A DNA stretch of 60,268 nucleotides, the filler included. It is 5 parts of 5 records of this genome, joined end to end, with 100 filler letters (N's around TTAATTAATTAA, not from the genome) between each part and the next. Parts side by side here need not be neighbours in the genome. Positions count along the whole stretch, not along the records: positions 7,931 to 21,226 come from SRR31156797_9541; 4 more parts are not named here. One strand, 5' to 3'. How positions within the stretch are numbered: position 1 is the stretch's first letter; the number at the start of each line of letters is the position of its first letter. The position numbers and the translations under genes are program-made. The notes beneath the pieces were generated by a model that worked only from the letters and a program-made list of their open reading frames with translations, did no database searches and was not told where the DNA came from. Shown here piece after piece: positions 7,831 to 38,324 of this stretch.

Positions 7831-7930
7831 NNNNNNNNNNNNNNNNNNNNNNNNNNNNNNNNNNNNNNNNNNNNTTAATTAATTAANNNNNNNNNNNNNN
7901 NNNNNNNNNNNNNNNNNNNNNNNNNNNNNN
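7831..7930. other. Artificial contig linker
   Basis: 44 N + TTAATTAATTAA (stops in all six frames) + 44 N. Confidence 0.99.
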
Positions 7931-8386
7931 TGCTGGTCCACTTCCTACTACTGCTACTTTTTTCCCAATTTTTTCTTTTGGGAAAAGTGGTTTTAGTCCT
8001 TGCTCAAATGCTGTTTCACTAATATGAGTTTCAACTGCTCCAATAGTGATCGCACCATGAGTGTCATTTAATGTACAATCTCCCTCACATAATACATCTT
8101 GAGGACAGATTCTTCCAAGAATCTCTGGAAATGGTGAAGTTTCATTTGAAATATTAAATGCAAGCTCTAAATCTTTGTTTGCAGTTTGTTTCAACCATGC
8201 TGGGATAATATTGTGTAATGGACACTTATTATGACAATATGGGTCACCACACCCTATACATCTCTCAGCTTGTTCTTCTGCTTTATTTTTATCAAATACA
8301 TTATACACTTCATCAAAGTCTTTGATTCTCTCTAATACCCCACGTTTGCTTGGGTTATTTCTATCTACTTTTGTAAAGTTAAGCAT
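7931..8386 (-). CDS. gltD: Glutamate synthase small subunit, 3'-truncated
   Basis: RCIGCGDPYCHNKCPLHN, LGRICPQDVLCEGDC, VAVVGSGPA. Lies directly after gltB. Confidence 0.95.
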
Positions 8387-8389
8387 ATT

Positions 8390-11300
8390 CTAGTCTCCCT
8401 GCTCTGGACTTAGTGGTAATACTTTCATATCTTTTGGTTTTACCATCCAGAAATTTCTTATTTCTGATCTAAAATGCTCTAATATATATTCAGCATTTTC
8501 TGATTCTGTTTGTGATACATAATCTCTTAGTAAGTTTTTAAGATAGATTCTTTCTAACTCTGTATCATCTGTATCGATTCTAAGAGCTTCAATAAGCTCT
8601 TGGTTCATATTGTCTATAAACTCTCTATCTTTATCATAGATAAATCCAAGTCCACCTGTCATACCAGCACCAAAGTTGATTCCAGTTTTTCCAAGGATCA
8701 CAACAATACCACCTGTCATATATTCACAGGCACTATCTCCAGTACCTTCAACAACGGCGATACATCCAGAGTTTCTTACAGCAAATCTCTCACCTACCAT
8801 AGCTCTAACGTATAGTTTTCCACCAGTTGCTCCATATAGACAAGTATTTCCTGCACCTGCATACTCACTTCCTTGAAGCTGAGGCTTAATGATGATCTTA
8901 CCACCATTCATCCCTTTCCCAACATAGTCATTTGCTACACCATTAAGATTAATTGTAACTCCTCGTGAAAGAAAAGTACCAAATGATTGTCCAGCAACTC
9001 CTGTTAAGTTGTACGTAATAGTATCTTCTGCTAGACCTTCATCTCCATATCTTCTTGCAATCTCCCCTGAAGTAAGTGTTCCAAAACTTCTATTAAGGTT
9101 AGAGATCTCAGCTGCTACTGCAATTGGTTTAGATGGGTTTTCAATAGTACTCATCACTTTTCTAAGAAGTTTTTTAGACTCTTCATTCTTATCATATGGT
9201 TCATTTGATTCCACTTGACAAGTGTCAACTCCATCAACTCTTCGTAATACATTTTGGAAATCAAATTTCTGTGCAAATTCATCATCTAAAACTTCTAATA
9301 GATCACTTCTACCAATAATATCTTCCATCTTAGAGTATCCAAGATGAGCAAGAATCTCTCTTACATCTTCAGCTAAGAATGTAAAGTAAGAGATCAGTCT
9401 CTCAACTGTTCCACTAAACTTCTCTCTAAGATCTTCATCTTGAGTTGCAACTCCTACAGAACATTTATTTGTATGACAAATTCTAAGGATTTTACAACCT
9501 AATAGTGTCAATGCTGCTGTACCGAAAGCATATGATTCAGCTCCAAGCATTGCTGCTTTTACCACATCTATACCAGATTTTAATCCACCATCTGTTTGAA
9601 GATGCACTTGTGCTCTTAAATGGTTTGCTTTAAGTGCATTATGCGCTTCTACAAGTCCAAGCTCCCATGGGTTTCCTGTATATTTGATAGATGTAAGTGG
9701 TGCTGCACCTGTTCCACCATCTGCTCCAGAGATAATAATCTTATCAGCATACGCTTTAGCAACTCCTGCTGCAATAGTACCAACACCAATCGTTGATACA
9801 AGTTTTACTGTTACTGTTGCAGTTGGATTGATCTGTTTAAGATCAAAGATCAACTGTGCAAGATCCTCAATAGAATAAATATCATGATGAGGAGGAGGTG
9901 AAATGAGTGTTACTCCTGGTGTAGTATGTCTAAGCTTAGCGATCATCTCAGTTACTTTAGCTCCTGGAAGCTGACCACCCTCACCTGGTTTTGCACCTTG
10001 TGCTAGTTTAATTTGTAACTCTTCACAGTTTACAAGATATCCTGGAGTTACTCCAAAACGTCCTGATGCAATCTGTTTAATCTTAGAATTCTTCAGAGTA
10101 TTAAATCTAGCAGGATCTTCTCCACCCTCACCTGAGTTTGAAGCTCCACCAATCGTATTCATCGCAGTTGCAATTGCTTCATGAGCTTCAACTGAGATCG
10201 ATCCACATGACATAGCAGCTGCTGCAAATCTTTTAAAGATATCCTCTTTTGATTCTACTTCCTCTACTGCAATTGGTGTCTTATCAGTTTTAAATTTAAA
10301 GAAATCTCTAATAAACTTTTTATCTCTTCCTTCAACCAGTTTTTTCAATGTTTTAAAATCACTGATATCCTCTTTCCCTGTTGCGTTTTTATTATGCATT
10401 GCATGAGTAACTGCTGGAGCATAATCGTGATATTCTCCACCATCAAGATACTTATAAAATCCTCCCATTTCAAGAGGAAACATAGTTTTGTCATCATGAA
10501 ATGCTTCAAAATGGATCTTTTCAACTCTTTTTTCAATATCTTCGTAGCTAAGACCTGAAAGATCACTATTAGCATGATGGAAACAATCTTTTACGATCTC
10601 ATCATTTAATCCAATTATATCAAATAATGAAGAGTTTCTATAACTCGCCATTGTAGAGATACCCATCTTTGACATAATCTTTAAAATCCCTGCTCCCATA
10701 GCTTTGCTACTGTTTTTAAGCTTTTGTTGTAACTCATATGGTGAGATATTTTTTCTCTCATAAAATGATACAATTGAAGCATACATCATATATGGATAGA
10801 TCACTGCTGCACCAAAAGCAAAAAGTACTGCAGCTGCATGAGGATCATAGATCTCACTTGTAACACATACAATAGATACTGTACTTCTAATATTATCCTC
10901 TAAAAGCTGTTGATTAATATACCCAACTGCAAATACAATAGGAATCATTTTCTTATCAAGTCCTAGACTTCTATCATCTAAAATAACAATACTAACATTA
11001 TCATTGACAACTGCATCTTTAATATCTGTATAAAGTTTTTCAAGGCTTTGTTTTAAATCACCGTCAAAAGTTGTATTAAAAGTTCTATTTTTATAATCTT
11101 CATCATAATGAACACTCTTTTCATCACCAAAGCTTAAAAGTACATCATACTTTTCTTTCATTAGAATAGGAGATGCTGCTTTGATTCTTTTTGAGTTTTC
11201 TGGGCACTCTTCTAAGATATTATAGGCGTGTCCAAGTCCAGTGTTAAGTGACATTACCACTTTTTCTCTATATGGATCGATTGGTGGGTTTGTCACTTGC

Positions 11301-12826
11301 GCAAACTTTTGTCTAAAGAAATCTGTAAAGTTTCTATTTGCATTTGAAAAACATGCAAGAGGAGTATCATCTCCCATAGATCCTGTTGGCTCTTTTGCAT
11401 CATCAGCCATAGGGATGATCATCTGATCTAAAACTTCATAGGTAATATTTGCATATTTTTGTCTATGTGTAAGATCATCAAACATATAATCACTATGATC
11501 TAAAAATGTATCTTCAACATACTCTTGAAGATATTTCATATTATTTGTAAGCCACTTCTCATAATTTTGTGTAGATTTAAGATAATCGTTAATATCTTTA
11601 TTTTTTAAGATTGCTCCATTTTTAAGATCAATTGCGATCATTTGACCACTTTGTAATCTTCCTCTATCAATAATATCCTCTTCATCAAAAAGTACTGTTC
11701 CATATTCACTTGTGATAAAAATTCTATCATCTTTTGTTCTAAAATATTTTGATGGTCTTAAACCATTTCTATCGATCAGACACCCTACATGTCTTCCATC
11801 AGTAAGTGATACGGCAGCTGGTCCATCCCATGCTTCAAATCTAATGGCACTAAACTCATAAAATGATCGTAGTTCACTATCCATATATGGAGCATTTTGC
11901 CAAGGAGCAGGTACTAGACTTCTTGCTGCTTTAAAATAATCCATCCCATTTACCATCAAGAATTCAAACATATTATCTAAGCTAGCACTATCACTTCCAC
12001 CATCTTGTAAAATAGGGAAGATTCTTGAAAGCTCTTCATCACTAAATACTTCAGATTTAATTGATTCTGTTTTTACTGCTACATTAAATCTATTTGCTTC
12101 AATTGAGTTGATCTCTCCATTATGAGCAATTCCTCTAAATGGTTGAGCAAGTCTCCACTTTGGTAAAGTATTTGTTGAGAATCTTTGGTGAAATAGTGCA
12201 AAAGAGATCTTAAAATCTTCATCATTAAGATCTTTATAAAACTGCTTGATCGTCGTAGGCATTACAAGCCCTTTATACGCGATTACTTTTGCACTAAATG
12301 TTGGGATATAAAAATCCTCACTCTGCTTTAAATGATGCTCAGACTCTTTTCTTGCAAGATATAACATCGCTTCAAATCTTTTTGAAGAAACTAAAGTATT
12401 TGGTACTACAAATACCTGTACCATCTTTGGTAAGATTGAGAGTGCAAACTCTCCAAGAGCATCAGTATCAACTGGTACTTCTCTATTTAAAACAACTTTG
12501 AGATCATTTTTATCACAATAGCTTCTAAAAATATCTAATTGCTCTTCATCTTTTGCAAATACAAATGCTACAGCATACTGTTTTGGTAGATCCACTCCAT
12601 TTTGAAAAGCAACCTTTCTCATAAACTCATCTGGCATAGAAAGAAGTAATCCACTTCCATCCCCAGATTTACCATCAGCGGCAATCGCACCTCTATGCAT
12701 CATTCTTTCCAATGAAGTGATCGCATCTTCAAGGTTCTGATGTGTTGGTTTATTTTTTAGGTGAGCTAGTAGTCCAAACCCACAATTGTCTTTAAATGAA
12801 GTTAATTTATCTAAATTACAACCCAT
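8390..12826 (-). CDS. gltB: Glutamate synthase large subunit
   Basis: N-terminal CGFG, HQRFSTNT, FAQVTNPPID, QGAKPGEGGQLPG, CHTNKCSVGVATQ, GXGXG domain. Confidence 0.98.
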   Translation of the reverse strand: MGCNLDKLTSFKDNCGFGLLAHLKNKPTHQNLEDAITSLERMMHRGAIAADGKSGDGSGLLLSMPDEFMRKVAFQNGVDLPKQYAVAFVFAKDEEQLDIFRSYCDKNDLKVVLNREVPVDTDALGEFALSILPKMVQVFVVPNTLVSSKRFEAMLYLARKESEHHLKQSEDFYIPTFSAKVIAYKGLVMPTTIKQFYKDLNDEDFKISFALFHQRFSTNTLPKWRLAQPFRGIAHNGEINSIEANRFNVAVKTESIKSEVFSDEELSRIFPILQDGGSDSASLDNMFEFLMVNGMDYFKAARSLVPAPWQNAPYMDSELRSFYEFSAIRFEAWDGPAAVSLTDGRHVGCLIDRNGLRPSKYFRTKDDRIFITSEYGTVLFDEEDIIDRGRLQSGQMIAIDLKNGAILKNKDINDYLKSTQNYEKWLTNNMKYLQEYVEDTFLDHSDYMFDDLTHRQKYANITYEVLDQMIIPMADDAKEPTGSMGDDTPLACFSNANRNFTDFFRQKFAQVTNPPIDPYREKVVMSLNTGLGHAYNILEECPENSKRIKAASPILMKEKYDVLLSFGDEKSVHYDEDYKNRTFNTTFDGDLKQSLEKLYTDIKDAVVNDNVSIVILDDRSLGLDKKMIPIVFAVGYINQQLLEDNIRSTVSIVCVTSEIYDPHAAAVLFAFGAAVIYPYMMYASIVSFYERKNISPYELQQKLKNSSKAMGAGILKIMSKMGISTMASYRNSSLFDIIGLNDEIVKDCFHHANSDLSGLSYEDIEKRVEKIHFEAFHDDKTMFPLEMGGFYKYLDGGEYHDYAPAVTHAMHNKNATGKEDISDFKTLKKLVEGRDKKFIRDFFKFKTDKTPIAVEEVESKEDIFKRFAAAAMSCGSISVEAHEAIATAMNTIGGASNSGEGGEDPARFNTLKNSKIKQIASGRFGVTPGYLVNCEELQIKLAQGAKPGEGGQLPGAKVTEMIAKLRHTTPGVTLISPPPHHDIYSIEDLAQLIFDLKQINPTATVTVKLVSTIGVGTIAAGVAKAYADKIIISGADGGTGAAPLTSIKYTGNPWELGLVEAHNALKANHLRAQVHLQTDGGLKSGIDVVKAAMLGAESYAFGTAALTLLGCKILRICHTNKCSVGVATQDEDLREKFSGTVERLISYFTFLAEDVREILAHLGYSKMEDIIGRSDLLEVLDDEFAQKFDFQNVLRRVDGVDTCQVESNEPYDKNEESKKLLRKVMSTIENPSKPIAVAAEISNLNRSFGTLTSGEIARRYGDEGLAEDTITYNLTGVAGQSFGTFLSRGVTINLNGVANDYVGKGMNGGKIIIKPQLQGSEYAGAGNTCLYGATGGKLYVRAMVGERFAVRNSGCIAVVEGTGDSACEYMTGGIVVILGKTGINFGAGMTGGLGFIYDKDREFIDNMNQELIEALRIDTDDTELERIYLKNLLRDYVSQTESENAEYILEHFRSEIRNFWMVKPKDMKVLPLSPEQGD

Positions 12827-13087
12827 TATATTCCTTTGTTTGGTTATCTTAAGTCACGGTGATTAAGATTTTGTCTTATGTCATATCTCGAGATATTAAG
12901 ATATTAAGTTTATATTACTCATATAATTGAGAGAGTATATCTAAAATTTGTTTAAAAAGCTGTTAAATGGTATTTTTTTAGTTTACAAAATACTCATTAA
13001 TAAAATTTATTCTTATTTTAAAAGCTCTTTTGCTTATAGTTTTACTAAAAACTAAGTATAATGGGGAAAAATTTGTTAGGGTGTGGA

Positions 13088-13762
13088 ATGACTGTTGAAA
13101 ATGGAATTAAAAACTTAGATAAAATAATTACAAAAATTGAATTTGCAAGATTACAAAAAAGTGACCACCATATCGTCCAATTGCTTGCAATTAGTAAATA
13201 TTCAACAAGTGATGAGATAAAAGTTCTCTATCAAGCAGGTCAAAGAGCATTTGGAGAAAACAAAGTACAGGATCTAAAGAAAAAAATGGAAGAGCTTGAA
13301 GAGCTCCCTATTAGCTGGCATTTTGTAGGAACTTTACAAAAAAATAAGATCAACAACCTTATTGATCTAAATCCTGCTCTTATGCATTCTCTTGATTCAC
13401 TAGAATTAGCTGAAGAGTTAGATAAAAAACTAAAAGCTAAAAATAAAACTATGAATTGTCTTTTGCAGGTTAATTCAGCGTATGAGGAAACTAAAAGTGG
13501 AGTTGATCCAAAACTTGCAGTTGAAACTTATAAACAGATACAACAAAACTATCCAAATATACACCTTAAAGGGATCATGAGCATTGGTGCACATAGTGAT
13601 AATATAGAGTTAATTAAAAAAAGTTTTCAAGTCTCAAAAGAGATCTTTGATCAAATTGATGGAGATATTCTTTCGATGGGGATGAGTAGTGATTTTGATC
13701 TTGCTATTTTAAATGGAGCAACTATGGTCCGAATTGGAAGTGCTCTATTTAAGGAAAACTAG
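13088..13762 (+). CDS. yggS: PLP homeostasis protein YggS/PROSC
   Basis: AISKY, FGENKVQ, WHFVGTLQKNK, LSMGMSSDF, MVRIGS. Start may be 13061 instead. Confidence 0.93.
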   Translation: MTVENGIKNLDKIITKIEFARLQKSDHHIVQLLAISKYSTSDEIKVLYQAGQRAFGENKVQDLKKKMEELEELPISWHFVGTLQKNKINNLIDLNPALMHSLDSLELAEELDKKLKAKNKTMNCLLQVNSAYEETKSGVDPKLAVETYKQIQQNYPNIHLKGIMSIGAHSDNIELIKKSFQVSKEIFDQIDGDILSMGMSSDFDLAILNGATMVRIGSALFKEN

Positions 13763-13765
13763 CGA

Positions 13766-16744
13766 ATGAATTTTGTAACTAAACTTGTTTTTTCTATTCT
13801 CTTTTTTAGTACAACACTTCTTTATGCACAAAAAACTTTTACTGTCTCATACGATCCAGATTATGAACCTTTTTCATATCATGTAGATAATAAACCCCAT
13901 GGATTATTGATAGATATCTATACTCAATGGGCAAAAGCAAATAACTATAAAGTAAAATTCATCAATGGAAGAACATGGGATAATGCTGTAGAGCTTGCAA
14001 AGAATGGAAAAGTGGACTTTTTTTTAGGGACAGACCCTTATGAAGATTGGATGAAAGCCTCAACACCATACTATAAAACTAAAACATCTCTATTTCGTCT
14101 TATTTCATTAGATGAGAAGATCAAAACTATAGGAATCATAGGTGAAGACTACAAACAACTCCTTGAAAAAGAATTTCCAGGGATTAGAGTGCTCTCTTAT
14201 GAAACATATGATGATCTTATAAGTGACTTAGTTAAAAGTAAAATTGATGCAATCTATGATGATATCATCGCTTTATCAACTATTATTTTTCAAAAAAAAC
14301 TCAACCATTTAGTCAAACCAATACCAAAACTTTCTATCACCACGGATATTTGTGCCATATCTAATAAAAGTGAAAATACTCAGCTTTTCTCCAAAGGGTT
14401 TAAAAATATTTCAAATATAGATCTTCAAGAACTTGAAGCCAAATGGATCATCAATGAATCACAAAAATATTTTGTCAATAATCTAGGCCTTGAACTTACC
14501 AATGATGAAAAAAAATATATAGAGAGGAAAAAACTCTTAAATATCTGTATCAATCCATCTTGGGCACCAATAGAGTTTAAAAGAGAAGAAAATGCACTGG
14601 GGATCTCTTTTGATATTTTAAATATCTTAAAAGAAAAACTACAACTAGACTATCAAGTGATCACTACGTATTCTTGGAAAGAGTCCCAAGAGTTTTTAAA
14701 AGAGAAAAAATGTGATCTTTTACCAACTGCTGTAAAAACTAAAAAAAGAGAAAAGTTTGCAAACTTTACAAAACCATATTTAGAATATGATCTTGTAATC
14801 ATCACAAAAAGTGATGTGCCTGAGATTAAAAATATGAATACCCTTAGCTCTAAAACAATCTCTAGAAGAGAAGGGAGTGGATTAATTACTAAAGTAAAAA
14901 ACAACTACCCTAATATAAATGTTTTAGAGACAAAAAGTACAAAAGACTCTTTTGAAGCAATTTTAAAAGAGAAATCTGATTTTACTATTAGTACTATTCC
15001 TGTTTTTTTATACCATAAAAGTAAATATGATATACAAGGTCTAAAGATCAATGGATATACACCACTTAAATATAATCTAAGTATGGCAGTAAGAGATGAT
15101 GATCCTATACTTTTAAATATTTTAGATAAGTCTTTACAATCAATACCAAGTTCAACCTATAAACTTGTCCATGATAAATGGTCAACTGTTAAAGTAGTTG
15201 AAAAAACCAACTGGTCACTTATACTTCAAATCACAGCTTTTTTAATCGTAATAGTAATATTTATCCTTTTTTATAATAAAAAACTCTCACAAATGGTAAA
15301 AGAGAAAACTAAAGATATAGAGAAACAAAAAAATGAACTTAAAGAGTTAAGTGAATCGTTGGAGCTAAAAGTAAGTGCTAGAACAATTGAACTTGACAAT
15401 GCTATTAAAGAGATTGAAAATATTCATAAACACACCAAAGAATCGATCAGATATGCTTCACTTATACAAGGGGCTTTAATCCCTAACGATAAACTACTCA
15501 ACAGATACTTTAAAGAGAGTTTTGTTTACTGGATGCCAAAAGATACTGTAGGTGGAGATATTTGGCTCTTTAGCAAGCTACGGCATAAAGATGAGTGTTT
15601 ATTACTTTGTATAGATTGTACAGGACATGGAGTTCCAGGTGCCTTTGTAACTATGATCATAAAAGCAATTGAGAGAGAAGTGATAGCACTTATTAATGAT
15701 AATAAAAATATTGATGTAAGCCCTGCTTGGATCATGGGATACTTTAATAAAACTATGAAAGTGCTCTTAAAACAAAAAAATAAAAACAGTATCTCAAATG
15801 TTGGTTTTGATGGTGGAATCATCTATTATAATAGAAGAACTCAGATTGTTAAATTTGCTGGGGCTGAAACCTCTTTGTTTTATATGGATAAAAATAATGA
15901 ACTTCAAACTATCAAAGGAAATAGATACTCAGTTGGATATAAAAAATGTAATATGAACTATGAATATCAAGAAAATATTATTCATGTTGAAGAGGGGATG
16001 AAGTTTTATTGTACCACTGATGGATACCTTGATCAAAATGGAGGAGAGAAAGGTTTTCCATTTGGTAAAAAAAGATTTAAAGATATTATAGTAAACTATC
16101 ATAATAGTTCCATGGATGAACAAAAAGAGATCTTTGTAAACTCTATTTTACAATATGAAGCAGCTATTGAAGAGAATGAAAGAAATGACGATATGACCCT
16201 AATAGGATTTGAGATAGGACCACAATCAACTTACAAAGAAGATAATATCTTAGAGATCGTTCAATATTCAGGGGTCATTACCCAAAATGTTATAGCAGCA
16301 AGTATTGATAATATTGAATCAAAGATCGAAAATATAGGACTTATTGGAACACTGTCTACAATCACTATAGAGTACTTTCAAAATATGATGCATTATGCTA
16401 AAAATGAAGATATGGGTTCAAGACAGATCGTACCTGCAGGATCTATAGATGTGCAGCTTATCAATAATGAATATTATAAGGTCACTGCTACAAATATCAC
16501 CTCAATAGATGATAAAAATCGAATTGAACCAAGACTAGAAGAGATCTCAAAACTAGATCGAGCAGGAATTAGAAAACGATATAAAGAGCTTCGAAAAAGT
16601 GGAGAGAATACCCATGAAAAAGGTGGAGGGATTGGAATGTATGAGATTGCTAAGATATCACAAAAAATTGAGTATACCTTTGATTCAATCAATGAGGACA
16701 AATACTATTTTACCATGTCATCCATTGTGGAGAAAAAGAAGTAA
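13766..16744 (+). CDS. Membrane sensor: two periplasmic binding (SBP family 3) domains + TM + PP2C/SpoIIE phosphatase + C-terminal SiaB-type kinase
   Basis: Signal peptide; YDPDYEPFSY and NPSWAPIEF PBP starts; TM WSLILQ...FILFY; PP2C motifs VGGD, DCTGHGVPGA, TDGYLDQ, DDMT; SiaB-like YSGVITQ, EYFQNMMHY, GGGIGMYEIAK. Confidence 0.85.
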   Translation: MNFVTKLVFSILFFSTTLLYAQKTFTVSYDPDYEPFSYHVDNKPHGLLIDIYTQWAKANNYKVKFINGRTWDNAVELAKNGKVDFFLGTDPYEDWMKASTPYYKTKTSLFRLISLDEKIKTIGIIGEDYKQLLEKEFPGIRVLSYETYDDLISDLVKSKIDAIYDDIIALSTIIFQKKLNHLVKPIPKLSITTDICAISNKSENTQLFSKGFKNISNIDLQELEAKWIINESQKYFVNNLGLELTNDEKKYIERKKLLNICINPSWAPIEFKREENALGISFDILNILKEKLQLDYQVITTYSWKESQEFLKEKKCDLLPTAVKTKKREKFANFTKPYLEYDLVIITKSDVPEIKNMNTLSSKTISRREGSGLITKVKNNYPNINVLETKSTKDSFEAILKEKSDFTISTIPVFLYHKSKYDIQGLKINGYTPLKYNLSMAVRDDDPILLNILDKSLQSIPSSTYKLVHDKWSTVKVVEKTNWSLILQITAFLIVIVIFILFYNKKLSQMVKEKTKDIEKQKNELKELSESLELKVSARTIELDNAIKEIENIHKHTKESIRYASLIQGALIPNDKLLNRYFKESFVYWMPKDTVGGDIWLFSKLRHKDECLLLCIDCTGHGVPGAFVTMIIKAIEREVIALINDNKNIDVSPAWIMGYFNKTMKVLLKQKNKNSISNVGFDGGIIYYNRRTQIVKFAGAETSLFYMDKNNELQTIKGNRYSVGYKKCNMNYEYQENIIHVEEGMKFYCTTDGYLDQNGGEKGFPFGKKRFKDIIVNYHNSSMDEQKEIFVNSILQYEAAIEENERNDDMTLIGFEIGPQSTYKEDNILEIVQYSGVITQNVIAASIDNIESKIENIGLIGTLSTITIEYFQNMMHYAKNEDMGSRQIVPAGSIDVQLINNEYYKVTATNITSIDDKNRIEPRLEEISKLDRAGIRKRYKELRKSGENTHEKGGGIGMYEIAKISQKIEYTFDSINEDKYYFTMSSIVEKKK

Positions 16745-16756
16745 TCTTATATACTT

Positions 16757-17671
16757 TTACAAAATATTAAGACTATTATTTTGAGTATCTTTCAAAGCTT
16801 CTAAATGAGCTTGATTAACCCTTTCTTCCAATGAGCTATATGTATCTTGTTCTTTATATTGCGTCATTCCAATACTAAAAGTAAAAGTTACATTTGAAAG
16901 TTTTCTAGGAACATTTATAGAAGAGATAACTTTTTTAGCATCTTCAATATTTAATTTAGGAAAAATAAAATAAAAAAGATTATCCATAAAATAATACACT
17001 ATACTTTTAGCTCCCAAACCTACAGTAAAAAACTTATGAAGCCCTTTAATAATAGTATCTACATCACTATTAACCATATCTAATTGTAAAACCTTTTCAG
17101 AAAATTCATCAATTGCTAATTTTGCAATAGTTAAATCTTCTCCATGAGTTTCTACTATTTTTACTTGTTTTGTAAGAAGTGATTGAAAACTCATATTTTT
17201 AATCTCACTACTATTAATATCTCTTGATTTTATTTGTGGCTTTGTGGTTTGTTCAAACTGATGATGTATCTCATCAGTTTTATTCAGTTCTGTTTCTAGT
17301 TGAGAGGTATATTTTCTAAGATCTCTTAACTCTCTTTTTAAATTATTGATGATCTCTTTATCAGTTTGGGAATGTTTTTGTAAAACCTCTTTTGTTTTTC
17401 GATGCTCTTCAATATTATAAAGTATTTTGTCTCTGGCTTTTTGAACTGTATAATGTACATTTTCTTTTAATTGTTCATTATCTTCAATAACAGATTTTCC
17501 TATGGAATCATTCATAAGAGTTGTTTTATTAAATCTTTTAACTACTTTTTTATATTCACTTAAAAGATTTTTATATTGAAGATATGCTTCACTTTCACTT
17601 TTATAAAGTTTTAATAGATCTTCTAAAATAAATTCACTATATTCAATGGTTTTTTCTTCTCTTGTTTTCAT
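16757..17671 (-). CDS. SiaD-like coiled-coil protein with a degenerate GGDEF domain
   Basis: N-terminal coiled coil. C-terminal GGDEF-fold pattern (LTIAKLAIDEF, TFSIGMTQY, RVNQAHLEA), but YFMDNLF sits where R.GGEEF is expected. Starts 7 bp after siaC. Confidence 0.7.
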   Translation of the reverse strand: MKTREEKTIEYSEFILEDLLKLYKSESEAYLQYKNLLSEYKKVVKRFNKTTLMNDSIGKSVIEDNEQLKENVHYTVQKARDKILYNIEEHRKTKEVLQKHSQTDKEIINNLKRELRDLRKYTSQLETELNKTDEIHHQFEQTTKPQIKSRDINSSEIKNMSFQSLLTKQVKIVETHGEDLTIAKLAIDEFSEKVLQLDMVNSDVDTIIKGLHKFFTVGLGAKSIVYYFMDNLFYFIFPKLNIEDAKKVISSINVPRKLSNVTFTFSIGMTQYKEQDTYSSLEERVNQAHLEALKDTQNNSLNIL

Positions 17672-17678
17672 TCTTTAA

Positions 17679-18056
17679 CTATTTCTCAATAAGTTTTATT
17701 GAAAGTTCTTCAAAATCTTCTTGATAACCCTCTCCTATTTCAAAACTTGGCTTATTTGCCTTATCATACAACCAGTTTATTTTTAAGAAAGTTTTATCTT
17801 TATTTTCATCAAGAAAGTCAAAAAAGTCAAAAAATAGCTTTGAACTACTTGAATTAAAATAAATAATTTCCAAATCAACAGTAGTTGTCTCTTTTACTTT
17901 TCCATCAAAATAATTTTCCATCCATTCAAAAACTGGCTTATAAAATTCAAGTGTGTTTTCTGGGTAAGACTTTCCTCGAATAGTGATATAGCCTTTCTCA
18001 TATAACATTTCAACTTGTGGAGTAAACTTTGTCTCTTCTATTATCAAATCTTGCAT
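17679..18056 (-). CDS. siaC: SiaC-family regulatory phosphoprotein (DUF1987)
   Basis: TPQV, GKSYPEN..EFY.PV..W, YFNSSSSK, INWLYD; AGGAG RBS. Confidence 0.9.
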   Translation of the reverse strand: MQDLIIEETKFTPQVEMLYEKGYITIRGKSYPENTLEFYKPVFEWMENYFDGKVKETTTVDLEIIYFNSSSSKLFFDFFDFLDENKDKTFLKINWLYDKANKPSFEIGEGYQEDFEELSIKLIEK

Positions 18057-18128
18057 TTAATAACACTCCTTTATATTTTTAATTTTTTAATTCTAACCAC
18101 TCTTAGATTAATTTAGTGTAAAAATTAT

Positions 18129-20183
18129 TTATATTTTTAATCCTATTACTGTTATATCATCATTTCTATCTTCATCCCCTTGATATTCTAATAACTCTTT
18201 TATTAGTATATCTTTTTGAGTATTACACTCTTTTTTGTAGCTTTTTTCTATTATAGATCTAAAACTATCTCTTCCAAAACAAAACCCTTTTTCTCCACCA
18301 TTTTGATCTAAATAACCATCCGTAGTCAAATAAAACTGCATCCCCTCTTTTACATCTATAATATGCTCTTTAAAAGTAAAATTAATATCTGATTTTTTAT
18401 ATCCTATAGAGTGACGTGACCCTCTAATTCTTTTGAATTCATTGTTTTCATCAATATAAAATAGTGCTGTCTCTGCACCTGAAAATTTTATTTGCTGTTC
18501 TTTTTTATTATAGTAAATAATCCCAGCATCAAATCCAGCATTGGAAATACTCGTAGAGTTTTCTTGTTTTAAAAGTTTTTTCATAGTTTGATTAAAATAA
18601 CTCAAAATCCATGAAGGACTCACCTCTATATCGTCATTTGATGCAATAACTGCTGCTATTTGTCTTTCAATCGCTTTAACTAACATAGTCACAAATGCTC
18701 CAGGAACTCCATGCCCTGTACAATCTACTACCATAAGTAAGCACTCATCATCATGTCGCAACTCTTCAAATAAATAGATATCTCCACCAACTATATCTTT
18801 TGGCTCCCAAATTACAAAAAAGTCACTAAAGTATTTTTTAAATACTTTATTATCTGGGACTATTGCTTGCTGGATCAAAGAAGCATACTCAATAGAATCT
18901 TTTGTATGTTTATGGAGTTCTTCAATTTTTTGTTTTTGTTCATCAAGTTCACTTATTACTTGATTAGTTAAACTTGTCAAAGCATCTAAAACTAAAAAAT
19001 GTTTATCATTAAAAAAATTATTACAAGTTCTGTTATTTTCAGTTTTATCTAAAACTATGTTTTGATTAAAGTCTTGTGTAGATTTTCTTTCAGATAACAT
19101 TAAAATAGTCAATGAAATATTTAAAAGATGGTTTTGTCCATTTTTATGAAATATTTCTCCATAAGTAAAAAAACCAGAAATTGGTGCTATATGATTGAGA
19201 GGTTCAAGTTCTTTTACAACATCAGATTGCATAAATGTAATTCTAGACGCACAACTATATGTAAACATTGCTTCAGGATAGTAATTGTTTAACTCTTTTG
19301 TTTTTTCTTTTGTACTATCTAAAACCATATTAACATTACCAAAAGCAAATCTTACTTTATCCCCTTCATATAGGTTACCAATTGTTTGCATTGATCCATC
19401 TTCAAATTGGTGTACAAAAGTACGGCATATCTCTAGACCGTTAGAATCTTTTTTAATAAGAGGAAACTCAATAGCTGAATGTGGTAAACTTTTTTTAATA
19501 TTAGGGCCTAAGTATTTACCATAAAGTTCACTTATATTTATGCCATCAATCTCATATAATCTTGTTCCATTTATTTTTGTAACAGTCATTTCTTTTCCAA
19601 TAGGTTGCCAGTTAAGTTGATAGTCTGTATAGACTTCTAAAACTTCACTTTGTAAAGAGACTGCAACTGCACCTTTATTATAAATCCCATCATTACAAAA
19701 AACAAAAGTATTTAAAAAGTTTCCATTGTCTCCCGACATCCCTCCAGCAATTGGAATACTATTATTTACTGAGGCAATACCATCTATGACATTACTTCCA
19801 TTAGTGAGCAATCCATCAATAAAAAGAATCATTGCTTTTGTATTACTTTCGTATAAGCTACTTGCTATATCAATACCAAGTGAAAACTCATCTTTATTGA
19901 CAAAGTAGCCACTTTTAATTGCAGTATCTGAAAATTCCATTACAGATATTACAATTCCTTGGGTTCCTATTTGTCCATTATATATTTCACCAGCTGTTGT
20001 AGTTCCTATAAAAGTTACTTTCGTATCTTTTGAAGTTATAATATCTATAACTTCTTGAATCTCTAGTTCTTTGATAAAACCACTAAATATTTGTAAGAGT
20101 GTTTTTTCTGAATTGATCTTTGATAGATCTAAATTTTGTTTTAATTCACTGATCGATTGAAAGTAGTGGTTTTTAACAGTCAT
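18129..20183 (-). CDS. FIST N/C sensor domains fused to a PP2C/SpoIIE phosphatase
   Basis: FIST motifs GTTTAGEI, IAGGMSGD, WQPIG, YSCASR, GFFTYGEI; PP2C motifs VGGD, DCTGHGVPGA, TDG, DDIT. ATG at 20183 preferred. Confidence 0.88.
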   Translation of the reverse strand: MTVKNHYFQSISELKQNLDLSKINSEKTLLQIFSGFIKELEIQEVIDIITSKDTKVTFIGTTTAGEIYNGQIGTQGIVISVMEFSDTAIKSGYFVNKDEFSLGIDIASSLYESNTKAMILFIDGLLTNGSNVIDGIASVNNSIPIAGGMSGDNGNFLNTFVFCNDGIYNKGAVAVSLQSEVLEVYTDYQLNWQPIGKEMTVTKINGTRLYEIDGINISELYGKYLGPNIKKSLPHSAIEFPLIKKDSNGLEICRTFVHQFEDGSMQTIGNLYEGDKVRFAFGNVNMVLDSTKEKTKELNNYYPEAMFTYSCASRITFMQSDVVKELEPLNHIAPISGFFTYGEIFHKNGQNHLLNISLTILMLSERKSTQDFNQNIVLDKTENNRTCNNFFNDKHFLVLDALTSLTNQVISELDEQKQKIEELHKHTKDSIEYASLIQQAIVPDNKVFKKYFSDFFVIWEPKDIVGGDIYLFEELRHDDECLLMVVDCTGHGVPGAFVTMLVKAIERQIAAVIASNDDIEVSPSWILSYFNQTMKKLLKQENSTSISNAGFDAGIIYYNKKEQQIKFSGAETALFYIDENNEFKRIRGSRHSIGYKKSDINFTFKEHIIDVKEGMQFYLTTDGYLDQNGGEKGFCFGRDSFRSIIEKSYKKECNTQKDILIKELLEYQGDEDRNDDITVIGLKI

Positions 20184-20369
20184 TTTATAGAACCTTTTAA
20201 CTAATTTGAAAGCCAAGTATTTTGATCTTGAGTAAAAAGAGTATCAAATGTAAAACTATACATAACAAGAATACATATGATACTCATAATATATTTAATT
20301 TTATTTACCAACAGATCAATCCTTGGAAATATATCTTTACATATTATAACTCAAACTCTATAAACTTCA

Positions 20370-20735
20370 CTATTTTACAGTTTCTAGACCTTTATCAATC
20401 CATCCATAATTGATTCCACCATCAAGCTCATATACATTTTTATAACCAAGCTGTAAGCCCATAAGCTCACCAATTGCTTTTGTTCTATTAGCATGAGCAC
20501 ATACTAAAATAAAAGGTTGCTCTTTATCTACTACAACTTTGGTAAACTCTTCTAAAAACTTATCAAGATCGTATCTTCCAAACTCATCAAAAAAAGTGAT
20601 CTTATGACTCCCCTCAATAATTCCATAATGCTCCCACTCTTCAACTCGTCGTACATCAATAACAGCATATCCTTCTTGCTGTTTTTGTTTAAACTCTTCT
20701 GTTGAGAGTGATTTAAATGGTCCAAAATTTAACAT
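20370..20735 (-). CDS. Rhodanese-like domain protein
   Basis: IDVRR.EEW...GII.G, LVCAHANRT, YELDGGI..W. Confidence 0.88.
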   Translation of the reverse strand: MLNFGPFKSLSTEEFKQKQQEGYAVIDVRRVEEWEHYGIIEGSHKITFFDEFGRYDLDKFLEEFTKVVVDKEQPFILVCAHANRTKAIGELMGLQLGYKNVYELDGGINYGWIDKGLETVK

Positions 20736-20763
20736 ATGATTTCCTTTGTCTTAATTTAAAATG

Positions 20764-21226
20764 TTATTCGTTACGTAACACATCAAGTACATCAATTTGC
20801 GTTACTTTTTTAGATGGATAGTATGATGAGATAAATACGATTATAACACTCCCAATCACTATAGAAATAAAATCGATCATATCAAGATCAAGTGGTAGTT
20901 TACTCGTTCCATATACATCAGCAGGGAGTGATACAATATCAAAGTTATCTAAAAGATACATTCCAAAAAAACCTAAACCTATCCCTACTATAACCCCTGC
21001 ACATCCTATAATAATACCTAGTCTTAAAAAGATCTGTTTTACTTCTTTTACGGAGGCTCCTAAAGATAAAAGAAGTGCAATCTCTTTTCTTCTACTCATC
21101 ACTGTCATTAAAAGGGAGCTGATAATATTTAAAGATGCTATTAAAATGATAAGCATCAATACTATAAATAAGGCTTTTTTCTCCATCTCCATTGCAGCAA
21201 AAAAGTTTCCATTTTGTTGCCACCAA
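20764..21226 (-). CDS. Lipoprotein-releasing ABC permease LolC/E, C-terminal fragment
   Basis: WWQQNGNFFAAMEMEKKALF, NIISSL, RRKEIALL, YYPS...LRNE. 5' end is cut by the linker. Confidence 0.88.
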
Positions 21227-21326
21227 NNNNNNNNNNNNNNNNNNNNNNNNNNNNNNNNNNNNNNNNNNNNTTAATTAATTAANNNNNNNNNNNNNNNNNN
21301 NNNNNNNNNNNNNNNNNNNNNNNNNN
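21227..21326. other. Artificial contig linker
   Basis: 44 N + TTAATTAATTAA + 44 N. Confidence 0.99.
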
Positions 21327-21366
21327 ACTAGGGAAAGATAGAAAGGAGTTCGAAAACTTAATAAAA

Positions 21367-21449
21367 CTGACCTCCTCCCTTGTTAACGGTTTCTCCTCAG
21401 GTCAGGAGAAACCTATCGCGCGGATAGCGGGAAAAATTTCAGTCAGCCT
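21367..21449. repeat. GC-rich nested-hairpin element at the contig edge (IS end or structured RNA; unresolved)
   Basis: GGTTTCTCCT/AGGAGAAACC stem at 21388-21413, TATC/GATA stem, and outer CTGAC/GTCAG. Confidence 0.4.
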
Positions 21450-21487
21450 AATTTGATTTATAGGATGCTTAATTTTCTTAAACAATT

Positions 21488-21518
21488 AAAAATCCCTCTT
21501 CAAATTTATGAAGAGGGA
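21488..21518 (-). terminator. Intrinsic terminator of the DUF116 gene
   Basis: TCCCTCTTCA/TGAAGAGGGA stem followed by a T-run on the minus strand. Confidence 0.75.
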
Positions 21519-21527
21519 AAATAAATT

Positions 21528-22646
21528 CTATTTCTGTTCTACTATTTTCAATAATTGTGATACAAATAGTTCAGTAGCTCTGTCACCGTCCCAATGTTTA
21601 GAACATCCTGCGAAGTTAAGCAGGACACATTGTGAAGGGATGTTAAGCCTTCTCATTTCATAACCTCCTGTTAGGAGATTAAGTAAACAAGCGACTCCAA
21701 TTATTCCTGTATGTTCCTGATCACGCCAATTTTCCAACCAAACAGAAAAATTTGATGAATGTGGAATAAGTGCAATTTCAAAATCATGCATTTTACTGAT
21801 TTGAACTATTTTACTTATATTACAGCTCTTATTACACTCAGAACATTTGTATGCTTTGTCAGTTTTTACAGCTTTACACGCATTACCTATGTTCATACAT
21901 GTAGGGAGTAAAACAATTTTTTTCTTAGTTTTAATAAATTTTTTCTTATAAACTCTATTTAATATTTCTGCACAGACCATATTTAAGTAATATTCATTTG
22001 GTTTTCGACCTGTAAAGATAATATCTTCTTTGAACCTATATTTCTCTTTTTGAGTATTAAGAAATAAAGCAGTATTCCCTAAATAACTCTTTAGAAAATT
22101 TGAAGATATTTTATTTAAATAGATAGAAAATTCAAGTGATGAGTAAATTATTGAGTTGAACTTTACATTTGAAATCTCCTTTGAATATGCTTCCCATATT
22201 CTTAACCTTTTGACTTCTTCATTAAATTCATGCGAAGCTTCAAGCCATCTGATTAATTTAGAAAAAATATTTTTTGAAATTGTGATGCCGTTATAATCCT
22301 CTTTAAGAAGGAATCCGGTATTTAATACACCTCTGACTTTGTCAACATAAGGCTTCAAAGTCTTATTCTTTTTTCTTAGTTTGTATAGAGTATTGAGTAA
22401 ATTTGCTTCTGGTTTTGAAAGCTTTACAGCGTTTTTAGTATAATTTTCCCAAAGAGTTCCAATCATCAGTAGTTCGATCAAATACTCTTCTCGTGTTCTC
22501 AATTTTTCAATGTTATGTGAATTGATAAAATTTGAGAAATCCTTAATAATGTTCTTATACTTTTTACCATATGAAATCATTTGATCAGTAGCATGTGATA
22601 CGTCTTCATAATAGTTCTGACCTAAGTAATAGGTTTTAGGAAACAT
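21528..22646 (-). CDS. DUF116-domain protein with a long helical N-terminal region
   Basis: C-terminal LLPTCM, CSECNKSC, IPHSS, GIIGVAC..NL..G, IPSQCVLL...GC..HW. Confidence 0.75.
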   Translation of the reverse strand: MFPKTYYLGQNYYEDVSHATDQMISYGKKYKNIIKDFSNFINSHNIEKLRTREEYLIELLMIGTLWENYTKNAVKLSKPEANLLNTLYKLRKKNKTLKPYVDKVRGVLNTGFLLKEDYNGITISKNIFSKLIRWLEASHEFNEEVKRLRIWEAYSKEISNVKFNSIIYSSLEFSIYLNKISSNFLKSYLGNTALFLNTQKEKYRFKEDIIFTGRKPNEYYLNMVCAEILNRVYKKKFIKTKKKIVLLPTCMNIGNACKAVKTDKAYKCSECNKSCNISKIVQISKMHDFEIALIPHSSNFSVWLENWRDQEHTGIIGVACLLNLLTGGYEMRRLNIPSQCVLLNFAGCSKHWDGDRATELFVSQLLKIVEQK

Positions 22647-23817: not shown

Positions 23818-25287
23818 TTAAACACTAGTTAATATAGGTGTTTTAATATTTTCTTTTTTAAAGTCTGGTGTTTTTCCAGTTTTCTGAGCCCCAATAGAGT
23901 GTAAAAAATTAATTATTTCAATATTATTAGTTGCAATTGCATAATCAAGTGCAGTATAGCCTTCTGAATCAAATGAATTCATTAATTCAAAATCACTACT
24001 AACAATTTTTTTAACTAATTCCAAATTTTCATTTTGGCAGGCTGTAATCAATATATTTTGATTATTCATATCTTTAGTGTTGGTATTTGCATTTTTCGAC
24101 ATAAGATATTCTGCTATTCTTGTTTTATTTTCGAAGACTGCATTGTGTAGAGCTGATTGACCAAAGTCATTTTTAGCTTCAATATTTACACTGTTATCAA
24201 GTAAAAATTTAACTGTTTCATATTTTTCGAAATATATTGCAAACATAAGAGGTGTTTTTCCATAAACTGCTTTTGAATTTATATCAACACCTTTATCTAA
24301 TAAAAATTTAATAGCTTCGTTACTACCATTTCCGGCAGCCATTGTTATAGGTGTTAGATCCGCAAGAGATTTGTAATTAATGTCCGCTCCGGCTTCGAAT
24401 AATGCATTTACTATTGTCATATTATTTGAAGTAATTGCAAGCATAAGAGGAGTTAATCCTTGCGAGTCCTCAAAATTAACATTAGCACCTTTATCTATTA
24501 AAGTTTGAACTAAAGATGAGTTAATACTGCCAATAGCATAATTTAAAGCTGTGTCTTGATTAATATCCACTAAAGAAATGTCTGCATTCATTTTAATTAA
24601 ATAGTTAGCTATTTGTTTTTGATCTTTTGATATCGCAAACATTAACGGTGTAGTATCCTCGAATCCTCTTGCGTTAATGTCTACACCAAATTTAATTAAT
24701 GCTTCAACAAGCTGAAAATTACCTGATGCTATTGCAAGTTCTAAAGCTGACATAGATGTTGGAGTATTTAAGGTTGCATCAGCACCATTCTCCAGTAGGA
24801 AGCTAAAAATATACATAGAATTATTAACCATAGCAGTTACCAATGGTGTCGCTCCTTCTTTAGCGAACGAGTTAACGTCGGCTCCAGCATTTACGAGACT
24901 TACTACAGCGTCATAATTTCTTAATTCAGTTGCAATTTGAATGGCTGTAATACCATCATCAGTTTGAATATTAACATCAGCTTTATATTTTATTAATATA
25001 TCAATTATTTCTAAATTCTGTAATTCTGTTGCATATATTAGAGCTGTTTTTCCATTCATATCTTTTGTATTTGGACTGTATCCTCCTTCTTTTAACCAGT
25101 ATTCAACATCCCAAACATCTTGCTTTTTAGTTGCTAATATTAACTCAGTTGTTTTTCCATCAACAACTTGCATGAAATTGGAATTATTAGAACAACCTAA
25201 AATAAAAAGTAAAACGAGTGATAATAAAATTGTAATAACTTTTGAGTTTTCACGACCAGCTTTCATTAATTTCCCTTGTAGTTTCAT
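23818..25287 (-). CDS. Ankyrin-repeat lipoprotein (~12 repeats)
   Basis: Repeated G.TPL..A/G.TAL..A...GADVN units; lipobox FILGC after a hydrophobic stretch; RBS AAGGGG. Confidence 0.9.
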   Translation of the reverse strand: MKLQGKLMKAGRENSKVITILLSLVLLFILGCSNNSNFMQVVDGKTTELILATKKQDVWDVEYWLKEGGYSPNTKDMNGKTALIYATELQNLEIIDILIKYKADVNIQTDDGITAIQIATELRNYDAVVSLVNAGADVNSFAKEGATPLVTAMVNNSMYIFSFLLENGADATLNTPTSMSALELAIASGNFQLVEALIKFGVDINARGFEDTTPLMFAISKDQKQIANYLIKMNADISLVDINQDTALNYAIGSINSSLVQTLIDKGANVNFEDSQGLTPLMLAITSNNMTIVNALFEAGADINYKSLADLTPITMAAGNGSNEAIKFLLDKGVDINSKAVYGKTPLMFAIYFEKYETVKFLLDNSVNIEAKNDFGQSALHNAVFENKTRIAEYLMSKNANTNTKDMNNQNILITACQNENLELVKKIVSSDFELMNSFDSEGYTALDYAIATNNIEIINFLHSIGAQKTGKTPDFKKENIKTPILTSV

Positions 25288-25474
25288 AACAAATACCCCT
25301 TTTAATTTAATATTGTAAAACATCTCGTTTATTATATCACAATTTTTTCAAATTACAACACTCAAAAAAACTCCTCGATTATTATATGAAAATGATTCGA
25401 AATTTCATTTGTCATAAAATCTAAAAACGAGTCAAATTTATTAAAAAAATGAGTTTATAGTCTTATTTGGCAAT

Positions 25475-30657: not shown

Positions 30658-30757
30658 NNNNNNNNNNNNNNNNNNNNNNNNNNNNNNNNNNNNNNNNNNN
30701 NTTAATTAATTAANNNNNNNNNNNNNNNNNNNNNNNNNNNNNNNNNNNNNNNNNNNN
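30658..30757. other. Artificial contig linker
   Basis: 44 N + TTAATTAATTAA + 44 N. Confidence 0.99.
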
Positions 30758-38221: not shown

Positions 38222-38242
38222 TTTGAAACAAATTTTAGATTG

Positions 38243-38299
38243 CAAAGATAGGTAAAAGTCTCGTTTATATAATTTATCATGATTTTTCACGTACATTTG
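38243..38299. promoter_or_regulatory. Divergent Bacteroidota -7 promoter boxes
   Basis: TAnnTTTG on the plus strand (TACATTTG 38292-38299) and on the minus strand (TATCTTTG 38250-38243). Confidence 0.6.
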
Positions 38300-38324
38300 C
38301 GGTTCAATTCGAAATAAATCAATT

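Follow-up and report, generated by a model that had tools for sequence, protein, structure and literature searches.

The stretch of DNA analyzed here (the window; 60,268 nt, filler included) joins five contig pieces. The second piece (positions 7931–21226, 13,296 bp, from SRR31156797_9541) contains an entire four-gene locus related to the SiaABCD system of Pseudomonas aeruginosa. We propose that this locus encodes a SiaABC-type partner switch that has two sensor inputs and uses a non-catalytic SiaD-like adaptor as the target of SiaC, and we put the probability of this reading at roughly 55%. The first input would be a membrane protein in which periplasmic binding domains are fused to a phosphatase and a kinase, the second a cytoplasmic FIST-linked phosphatase.

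Since the locus lies within a single piece, the adjacency of its genes is real for that contig. The membrane sensor gene is on the plus strand; the other three genes form a minus-strand operon in the order FIST-PP2C, siaC, siaD-like, with gaps of 72 nt and 7 nt. The two units are convergent, with 12 nt between the stop codons of the sensor gene and the siaD-like gene. Across the 48 open reading frames (ORFs) scanned in the window, the sole SiaB domain and the sole SiaC lie 1 kb apart. The minus-strand operon has no kinase of its own, and the only SiaB is in the convergent gene, which argues for a single circuit. An initial annotation of the window had proposed that all four Sia-type components are present; ORF, domain and structure comparisons find each of them in the expected place and orientation, with matches far beyond chance. 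Its account of the opposite strand, with FIST-PP2C, siaC and a SiaD-like protein without the GGDEF motif, is likewise correct, and the Campylobacterota-like origin that it suggested agrees with the names of related records (Arcobacteraceae and Campylobacterota metagenome-assembled genomes, MAGs).

Two sensor proteins with SiaA-type phosphatase domains

The membrane sensor (13766–16744, + strand) is a protein of 992 amino acids (aa), identified from Pfam, NCBIfam and hydropathy. From the N-terminus, it consists of a signal or anchor peptide, two SBP_bac_3 domains, one transmembrane (TM) helix, a coiled coil, a SiaA-type PP2C phosphatase domain and a SiaB-type kinase domain. Hydropathy places the N-terminal hydrophobic segment at aa 3–21 and the single TM helix at about aa 482–503 (15209–15274, +; Kyte-Doolittle peak of 2.94 over aa 480–511); the same analysis gives no TM segment in the other three proteins of the locus. 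SBP_bac_3 is matched in two stretches (Pfam, 3.5e-30). The best of these is the second domain, at aa 258–473 (14537–15184, +); the first, weaker copy covers approximately aa 24–235, with an ArtI-like NCBIfam match at aa 6–171. Because both copies are positioned between the hydrophobic segment and the TM helix, both should be periplasmic. Pfam and hydropathy thus bear out a PBP-PBP-TM-PP2C-SiaB fusion (PBP, periplasmic binding protein) in one gene, as first annotated.

The phosphatase region of the membrane sensor, including a preceding helix, spans aa 542–817 (15389–16216, +), a boundary based on the NCBIfam SiaA model, identity to the PP2C domain of the FIST protein, and motifs. Pfam SpoIIE/PP2C matches aa 611–815 (2.6e-14), and the NCBIfam SiaA model matches aa 515–817 (6.8e-70). 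The SiaB-type (DUF6272) Ser/Thr kinase domain follows at aa 831–987 (16256–16726, +), supported by Pfam, NF038262 and PDB chain 6kko_A. That the C-terminal domain is a SiaB match, as had been claimed, is confirmed by DUF6272 at aa 863–982 (1.5e-21; 76.9 bits against a Pfam cutoff of 26.6) and by the SiaB chain 6kko_A (7.5e-9). The predicted catalytic glutamate of SiaB is E61, according to excerpts of the published work (PMC7647112); the residue at this position is also Glu here, when residues are counted by hand in the unlabelled 6kko_A alignment. Pfam reports no further kinase or HATPase family in the 992-aa protein at E ≤ 0.01.

The second sensor is a cytoplasmic protein combining FIST and FIST_C with a SiaA-type PP2C domain (18129–20183, −; 684 aa from ATG; Pfam, PDB 6k4e). 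The full ORF, 18129–20216 (−), encodes 695 aa and has an in-frame TTG at 20216, but translation more probably begins at the ATG at 20183, which has AAAGG upstream. Pfam matches FIST (4.6e-43), FIST_C (3.3e-21) and SpoIIE (4e-19). For the PP2C domain, the SiaA phosphatase structure 6k4e (3.7e-52) is the sole PDB match at E ≤ 0.001; a sequence comparison of the FIST part with the PDB gives nothing at E ≤ 0.01. The protein ends directly after its PP2C domain, without a kinase domain, and the 72 nt between its stop codon and the siaC start leave no space for a SiaB remnant.

The two PP2C domains of the locus are 58% identical over 276 aa. The GGD, DCTGHG, TDG and NDD motifs, which carry the metal-binding aspartates in this class of phosphatases, are intact in both.

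SiaC and its predicted phospho-acceptor

The siaC gene (17679–18056, −) encodes a 125-aa phosphoprotein of the SiaC family (Pfam SiaC, 2.5e-35, 121 bits against a cutoff of 24.5; PDB 6kko_C, 4e-17). It is preceded by an AAGGAG ribosome-binding site, and the ATG of the siaD-like gene is 7 nt beyond its stop codon. Excerpts of two studies identify T68 as the phospho-acceptor of P. aeruginosa SiaC (PMC8457831, PMC7647112). In the 6kko_C alignment, this residue is matched by Ser69 (codon at 17850–17852, −). The surrounding segment, YFNSSSSK (YFNSSSSKLFFDFFD), is invariant across 77 aligned SiaC sequences.

A SiaD-like family without the GGDEF motif

The last gene of the operon (16757–17671, −) encodes a 304-aa SiaD-like pseudo-cyclase, which by profile and Foldseek comparisons has a helical N-terminal stalk and a degenerate GGDEF-fold domain. 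Pfam finds no match in the full-length protein; the C-terminal 147 aa score 16.3 bits (E 0.0083) with Pfam GGDEF (PF00990), under the gathering cutoff of 23.8. A profile made from the protein and 20 homologues matches solved GGDEF domains, with E-values of 7.7e-5 for DosC and 0.092 for SiaD (7e6g). In the AlphaFold2 model (mean pLDDT 81), an N-terminal helical region and a helix of 73 residues are combined with an alpha/beta domain. The top Foldseek match of this model in the PDB is P. aeruginosa SiaD in the SiaC-SiaD complex 7e6g (3.5e-10), followed by many GGDEF domains. There are 88 matches at E ≤ 0.001, the top ones with target-normalised TM-scores of 0.6–0.75 and root-mean-square deviations of ~2.4–3 Å over ~150 columns. 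Judged by the model, “SiaD-like” is a fair name for the fold of this protein.

The residues expected for catalysis are replaced. In the register given by the DosC profile alignment, the A-site reads M229-D230-N231-L232-F233 (16973–16987, −) in place of G-G-D/E-E-F; the DxD stretch has lost its first Asp, and the substrate-binding Asn position is likewise replaced. One aspartate of the DxD region, D188, is shared without exception by the 21 close relatives. The position of the I-site reads G-A-K-S rather than RxxD. On sequence grounds, the SiaD-like protein is thus predicted to be incapable of canonical cyclase activity.

The same features extend to relatives of the protein. A search of 1.84 billion representatives with the family profile gave 889 matches at E ≤ 1e-3, 75 at E ≤ 1e-10 and 30 at E ≤ 1e-30. 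The family is therefore small, with 20 clusters at 90% identity and 75 representatives at E ≤ 1e-10. For the family alignment, 81 sequences were considered (the query, P0012 and P0266–P0344), of which 47 with lengths of 240–360 aa were kept and 34 fragments or over-long sequences were dropped. At the A-site, [GAS]G[DE]EF is absent from all 47; at the I-site, two of them have RxxD. The GGDEF motif is absent from all of the 68 best representatives (P0266–P0333), some of which are N-terminal fragments unable to carry it, and is present in 59 of the 81 next-ranked representatives. This sharp change indicates a distinct, consistently non-catalytic clade and not a recent pseudogene. The expectation that the output is something other than synthesis of cyclic di-GMP (c-di-GMP) is well supported by the absence of the motif in all 47 members; the output may still be c-di-GMP turnover.

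Conservation in the family is strongest outside the GGDEF-like part. The most conserved segments among the 47 members are two parts of the stalk, aa 40–62 and 84–96, with mean column identities of 0.50 and 0.51; the value for the GGDEF-like part is 0.37. The first segment has the motif YKK..KRF.KT..MNDS.GK.VI (17486–17554, −), which the family alignment and a model of the complex (see below) point to as the predicted SiaC-binding site. Nevertheless, all 47 near-full-length members retain the GGDEF-like domain, with fold motifs such as TFSxG conserved. A search of the ESM Atlas with stalk aa 1–150 gave best values of 0.76 and 0.75, under the level of a usable lead.

A predicted complex between SiaC and the stalk

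SiaC of P. aeruginosa binds as four molecules that clamp, via alpha2/alpha3, the two repeated motifs of the dimeric SiaD stalk; T68 of SiaC slots between the stalk helices, and its phosphorylation stops binding (excerpts of PMC8457831). A comparable contact is predicted here. Two copies of SiaD-like aa 1–175 were modelled with two copies of SiaC, giving an ipSAE of 0.81 (0.80–0.82 across runs) versus 0.61 for the best of three controls. Of solved complexes, 51 of 78 attain the pass mark of the tool; of mismatched pairs, 2 of 108 do. Contacts are ≥96% shared between runs, and the partner pLDDT is ≥90. On the SiaC side, the modelled interface comprises residues 66–80, S69 included, and 102–114. 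On the stalk side, it comprises residues 45–62 of both copies together with residues 1 and 3–4, and so coincides with the conserved KRF.KT..MNDS.GK motif. The SiaC face used in the model is the same as that in the SiaC-SiaD crystal structure, as far as the excerpts of PMC8457831 describe it.

Relatives and related loci

The combination of PP2C and SiaB in one polypeptide is not unusual. Searching with aa 560–992 of the membrane sensor, 7999 candidates were scored, 2475 of them at E ≤ 1e-10, and the best 120 were tallied for domains. All 120 carry the PP2C-SiaB fusion (PF07228 + PF19788). Their sensor domains are varied: 22 have SBP_bac_3, 20 a receiver (REC) domain and two FIST; the others have PAS, dCache, GAF, another domain or none. 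Where a source is named, it is a Campylobacterota or Arcobacteraceae MAG, and the NCBI label is “SiaB family protein kinase.” The initial annotation had described the components as rewired; this rewiring is not unique to the contig, and the fusion is the standard form of a very large Campylobacterota family.

Six pairs of fusion proteins among the best 120 (P0025–P0144) have equal longest-contig sizes (2793872, 21763, 27860, 10948, 7142 and 9154). This suggests that paired PP2C-SiaB paralogues are often side by side, some on contigs of just 7–11 kb, and that paired sensors may be a recurring design. Provided that equal sizes do denote one and the same contig, several of the contigs are too short for the two genes to be anything but neighbors. 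Equal longest-contig sizes are also seen for SiaD-like proteins P0019, P0015 and P0020 and SiaC proteins P0202, P0261 and P0172 (11741, 4376 and 1047, respectively), which is suggestive only.

SiaC itself has at least 1480 clusters of relatives (90% identity) at E ≤ 1e-5. A quick tree was made from 77 rows: the query, 75 sequences chosen from 120 listed matches, and the SiaC of a related locus, L001 (see below). In this tree, the five SiaCs linked to a SiaD-like gene require four changes, a value equally low in 47 of 500 shuffles, and three of the five fall in one 20-row group (SH-aLRT 93).

A scan of species-representative genomes for SiaD-like proteins gave at least two confirmed loci, L001 and L002, among the 600 stretches listed. 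L002 is a 1.6-kb fragment. L001 is a 7.4-kb contig of an Arcobacteraceae MAG that encodes a receiver domain, a stand-alone SiaB, SiaC, an HD-GYP protein and a SiaD-like protein. The SiaB of L001 has 183 aa and a single receiver domain ahead of it (NF038262, 134.9 bits). The HD-GYP gene (1499–2293) is located between siaC and siaD-like (2287–3216), and it overlaps the start of siaD-like by 7 nt; its product retains the HD and HHExxDGxGYP motifs intact, and its N-terminus is a coiled coil. There is no PP2C within the 7.4 kb of L001. SiaB, SiaC and SiaD-like thus occur together in L001, the one related locus with readable context; the exact four-gene set was not found elsewhere. A stalk motif, VKR..K.....D, that seemed to be shared by the N-terminal helix of the L001 HD-GYP protein was dropped (hhalign probability 0.1, E 0.73).

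Proposed mechanism and its significance

We propose the following scheme. The SiaB domain of the membrane sensor would phosphorylate SiaC on S69, and either PP2C domain could strip the phosphate from SiaC. The ratio of phosphorylated to unphosphorylated SiaC would then depend on the periplasmic domains and the FIST domain together, according to their ligand state. Unphosphorylated SiaC would use its alpha2/alpha3 face to clamp aa 45–62 of the stalk in the SiaD-like dimer, much as SiaC clamps SiaD, and phosphorylation of S69 would block this clamp. Because the GGDEF-like domain is predicted to be unable to make c-di-GMP, the signal would leave through the conformation of the adaptor, i.e., as a SiaC-dependent change in its shape or oligomeric state that acts on another protein. 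More speculatively, that protein could be an HD-GYP enzyme that degrades c-di-GMP, or some other partner whose gene lies elsewhere; L001 makes HD-GYP the best single guess.

Several points weigh against this scheme. First, the substrate relations of the kinase and the phosphatases are predicted by homology, and the gene of the sensor-kinase is transcribed separately from the operon, in the convergent direction. Both PP2C-SiaB and SiaC also have very many paralogues, so cross-talk or a different cognate pairing is possible. Second, the proteins score below the NCBIfam cutoffs: SiaC reaches 98.4 bits versus an equivalog cutoff of 150; the two PP2C proteins, taken whole, reach 236 and 245 bits versus 700 for SiaA, missing this cutoff because the model is matched in its C-terminal part only; the SiaB domain, with 82.5 bits, is slightly under the NF038262 (SiaB_fam) cutoff of 85; and the 304-aa protein reaches 20.8 bits (2.1e-4) versus 290 for SiaD. 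Third, in the quick tree, the SiaC of this locus and a 98%-identical metagenomic copy are on a long branch (1.57 changes per site), and the 75 other Campylobacterota SiaCs are much nearer to each other than to this pair. Fourth, the margin of the complex model over its controls is exactly the required +0.20, with one control as high as 0.61. A similar complex, 7e6g, has already been solved, so the pass may reflect memory or likeness rather than binding. Moreover, the complex was run with multiple copies, a format unlike that used to calibrate the tool, and alignments were not used. Lastly, L001, the sole related locus with readable context, differs from this one (REC, stand-alone SiaB, HD-GYP), and a Pfam scan gives no HD-GYP gene on the contig of the locus.

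If the scheme is correct, the switch has been kept and the cyclase chemistry discarded across a small family, with the predicted SiaC-binding stalk as the conserved part. The mechanism in which SiaC clamps a stalk would thereby be separable from c-di-GMP synthesis, which predicts that other outputs exist. The locus would also be a compact test case for the integration of periplasmic and cytoplasmic inputs by one phosphoprotein. In addition, the size of the PP2C-SiaB fusion family suggests an under-described signalling layer that is common in Campylobacterota. A wider and more tentative proposal, which we consider possible but rather unlikely, is that the Sia switch of Campylobacterota is a broad system of many paralogues. 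Dozens of sensors on PP2C-SiaB pairs, often several in a neighbourhood, would converge on SiaC-like phosphoproteins, with SiaD-like proteins as dedicated, never-catalytic adaptors to effectors such as HD-GYP enzymes. If so, the locus would be the first worked example of a phosphoserine signalling layer missed by surveys keyed to STAS and HATPase domains.

Alternative explanations

Three other explanations are considered. The first is that two independent modules happen to abut: the membrane sensor would act on a SiaC-like substrate encoded elsewhere, and another paralogue would be the kinase for the operon. The convergent orientation, and hence separate transcription, of the two units is consistent with this possibility, as are the size of the PP2C-SiaB family, the six pairs of equal longest contig, which suggest several paralogues per genome or neighbourhood, and the number of SiaC clusters. 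However, the operon has no kinase, the only SiaB and the only SiaC among the 48 ORFs are 1 kb apart, and just 12 nt separate the stop codons of the two units. SiaB is also found beside SiaC and SiaD-like in L001. On balance, we consider independent modules improbable.

The second explanation is that the SiaD-like protein serves to soak up or buffer unphosphorylated SiaC, whose true target is another protein. SiaC relatives, with their clusters numbering at least 1480, vastly outnumber the SiaD-like family, and so most Campylobacterota SiaCs must act on something else; the stalk is also conserved more than the GGDEF-like domain. Retention of the GGDEF-like domain in all 47 near-full-length members, with its TFSxG-type motifs, instead argues for some role of that domain, and the spacing of 7 nt couples siaC and siaD-like tightly. 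We give a sink about the same small chance as independent modules.

The third explanation gives the SiaD-like protein a remaining role with nucleotides, either as a non-canonical cyclase or as a receptor for GTP or c-di-GMP, so that the output is directly nucleotide-based. This reading fits the modelled GGDEF fold, the invariant D188 and the overlap of siaD-like with an intact HD-GYP gene in L001, but is very unlikely given the replacement of the first DxD Asp, the substrate-binding Asn position and the GGDEF motif, the near or complete loss of RxxD and GG[DE]EF across the family (2 and 0 of 47), and a Pfam GGDEF score under the gathering cutoff.

Comparison with known systems

The proposed two-input switch with a non-catalytic adaptor is most similar to SiaABCD of P. 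aeruginosa, in which the PP2C phosphatase SiaA, the kinase SiaB and the phosphoprotein SiaC serve to turn on the diguanylate cyclase SiaD. Both have the same four protein families, and the PP2C, SiaB, SiaC and SiaD-fold parts match structures from that system. SiaC has a Ser at the position of T68, and in the model, the SiaD-like stalk contacts SiaC through the same face. There are also clear differences. Here, a single membrane sensor holds the kinase, fused C-terminally to a phosphatase; there is an additional, FIST-linked phosphatase; the genes form two convergent units, whereas siaABCD is one operon of four separate genes; and the sensor domains are two SBP_bac_3 and FIST. The SiaD homologue has neither the GGDEF motif nor the RxxD site, with predicted loss of the c-di-GMP-synthesis output. 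Without an active cyclase, with a different gene layout, and with all four components under the NCBIfam equivalog cutoffs, the locus is best described as a variant of SiaABCD and not as a member.

A second comparison is with HsbR-HsbA(-HsbD) of P. aeruginosa and CrsR-CrsA of Shewanella oneidensis. HsbR and CrsR are receiver-PP2C-kinase proteins (PMC6482189, in part). As here, an input domain, a PP2C domain and a Ser kinase, GHKL-type in those systems, are joined in one polypeptide that sets the phosphorylation of a small partner-switch protein, and the targets of that protein include a GGDEF protein, according to the same excerpts (PMC6482189). By contrast, the kinase of the present locus is of the DUF6272/SiaB type, with no HATPase family at E ≤ 0.01 (Pfam), its presumed substrate is SiaC/DUF1987 rather than STAS, and its sensor has periplasmic binding domains rather than a receiver. 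A sigma or anti-sigma partner is not evident here.

A survey of 82 Campylobacterota genomes by Mo et al. (bioRxiv 10.1101/2022.03.11.484041; mBio PMC9239204) concerns systems of the same phylum. In the excerpts of that paper, the authors describe clusters of PP2C, stas_STYK and STAS genes that adjoin c-di-GMP enzymes, note a bifunctional REC-PP2C-kinase protein, and liken the clusters to SiaABCD. The logic of these clusters is like that proposed for the present locus: a periplasmic-sensor PP2C and a kinase acting on a small phosphoprotein, there beside a c-di-GMP enzyme. They differ in that they were searched for with SpoIIE (PF07228) and HATPase (PF13581) and have STAS targets; the excerpts contain no mention of DUF6272, DUF1987, SiaC-type modules or a degenerate SiaD-like family (PMC9239204).

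A full-text search of the literature, with subscription journals outside its scope, found no description of a dead SiaD-like family or of the PP2C-SiaB fusion family, no report of a FIST domain combined with PP2C, and no experimental work on SiaABCD outside P. aeruginosa. The bacterial literature that it found on SiaC together with PP2C consisted of the P. aeruginosa work and the Campylobacterota survey.

Individual domains also have known counterparts. PelD and PopA are catalytically dead GGDEF proteins that serve as receptors or adaptors and bind c-di-GMP via an RxxD I-site. The SiaD-like protein resembles them in that a GGDEF fold would be used for regulation without cyclase activity. It differs in its I-site, which is G-A-K-S here and seldom RxxD in the family, and in that its conserved part is the predicted SiaC-binding N-terminal stalk. 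Similarly, NosP-type FIST sensors have FIST and FIST_C ahead of a signalling output, and the FIST-PP2C protein has a weak likeness to the NosP model (3.2e-15). With 56.1 bits versus a cutoff of 450 and with PP2C as the output, this is a general FIST-family likeness from which no ligand can be inferred.

Gene neighborhood

The piece at 7931–21226 opens with a gltD fragment truncated by the end of the contig. Next come gltB, a YggS-family gene and the 992-aa sensor gene (+), which begins 4 nt past the yggS stop codon. The rest of the piece, on the minus strand, has siaD-like, siaC and FIST-PP2C, then a gene for a rhodanese and finally part of lolC/E, truncated at the other contig end. The end-cut fragments are gltD at 7931–8386 (model positions 3–153 of 467) and lolC/E at 20764–21226 (262–411 of 411). 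Two genes outside this piece are likewise cut by the ends of the window or of a contig and not by mutation: pyruvate kinase (82–930, C-terminal part only) and pyrB (7188–7830, model positions 1–220 of 297).

Linkers of 100 nt each (44 N, TTAATTAATTAA, 44 N) separate the five pieces; they occupy 7831–7930, 21227–21326, 30658–30757 and 53879–53978. Adjacency across the linkers is therefore not real, and genes past 21226 are not neighbors of the locus.

A scan of 12700–21600 gave 53 promoter-like sites, versus 47.6 ± 6.3 in shuffles, and three terminator-like sites, versus 2.4 ± 1.6. These counts are near those of the shuffles. No terminator was called between the convergent genes. Rfam gave no family at gathering score in the window, including no c-di-GMP riboswitch, and PADLOC assigned none of the four proteins to a defense-system family.

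Other features of the window

The fourth piece (30758–53878) differs in composition from the rest of the window, with a G+C content of 0.31–0.41 per 2-kb window versus 0.25–0.30 in the low-GC parts of pieces one to three and five. The gene at 33632–35761 specifies a C10 peptidase that also has an I69 inhibitor domain, a pair of CUB domains and, for sorting, a Por_Secre_tail domain, a signal characteristic of type IX secretion in Bacteroidota. This contig may have been mis-binned or acquired horizontally. The same piece has three consecutive DEAD-box helicase genes (36869–40807; one − and two +), the last with a DbpA RNA-binding domain, and a KatG-type catalase-peroxidase (G+C 0.41) adjoining a Fur-family regulator and a cNMP-binding protein (44118–47958). 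Near the KatG region, the gene at 48877–52224 encodes a protein of 1115 aa in which ricin-type lectin repeats are the sole recognized domains.

Two further proteins are encoded in other pieces. Ankyrin repeats make up nearly the whole of a 501-aa protein (23818–25323; Pfam Ank_2, 5.3e-80), an unusual feature in a free-living bacterium; its NCBIfam matches are at the level of repeats and all far under the cutoffs. Close to the end of the window, a 368-aa protein (58675–59781) has a receiver domain at aa 18–126, followed by ~240 C-terminal residues in which Pfam finds no family even at E ≤ 1, and its gene adjoins a histidine-kinase fragment at the end of the window.

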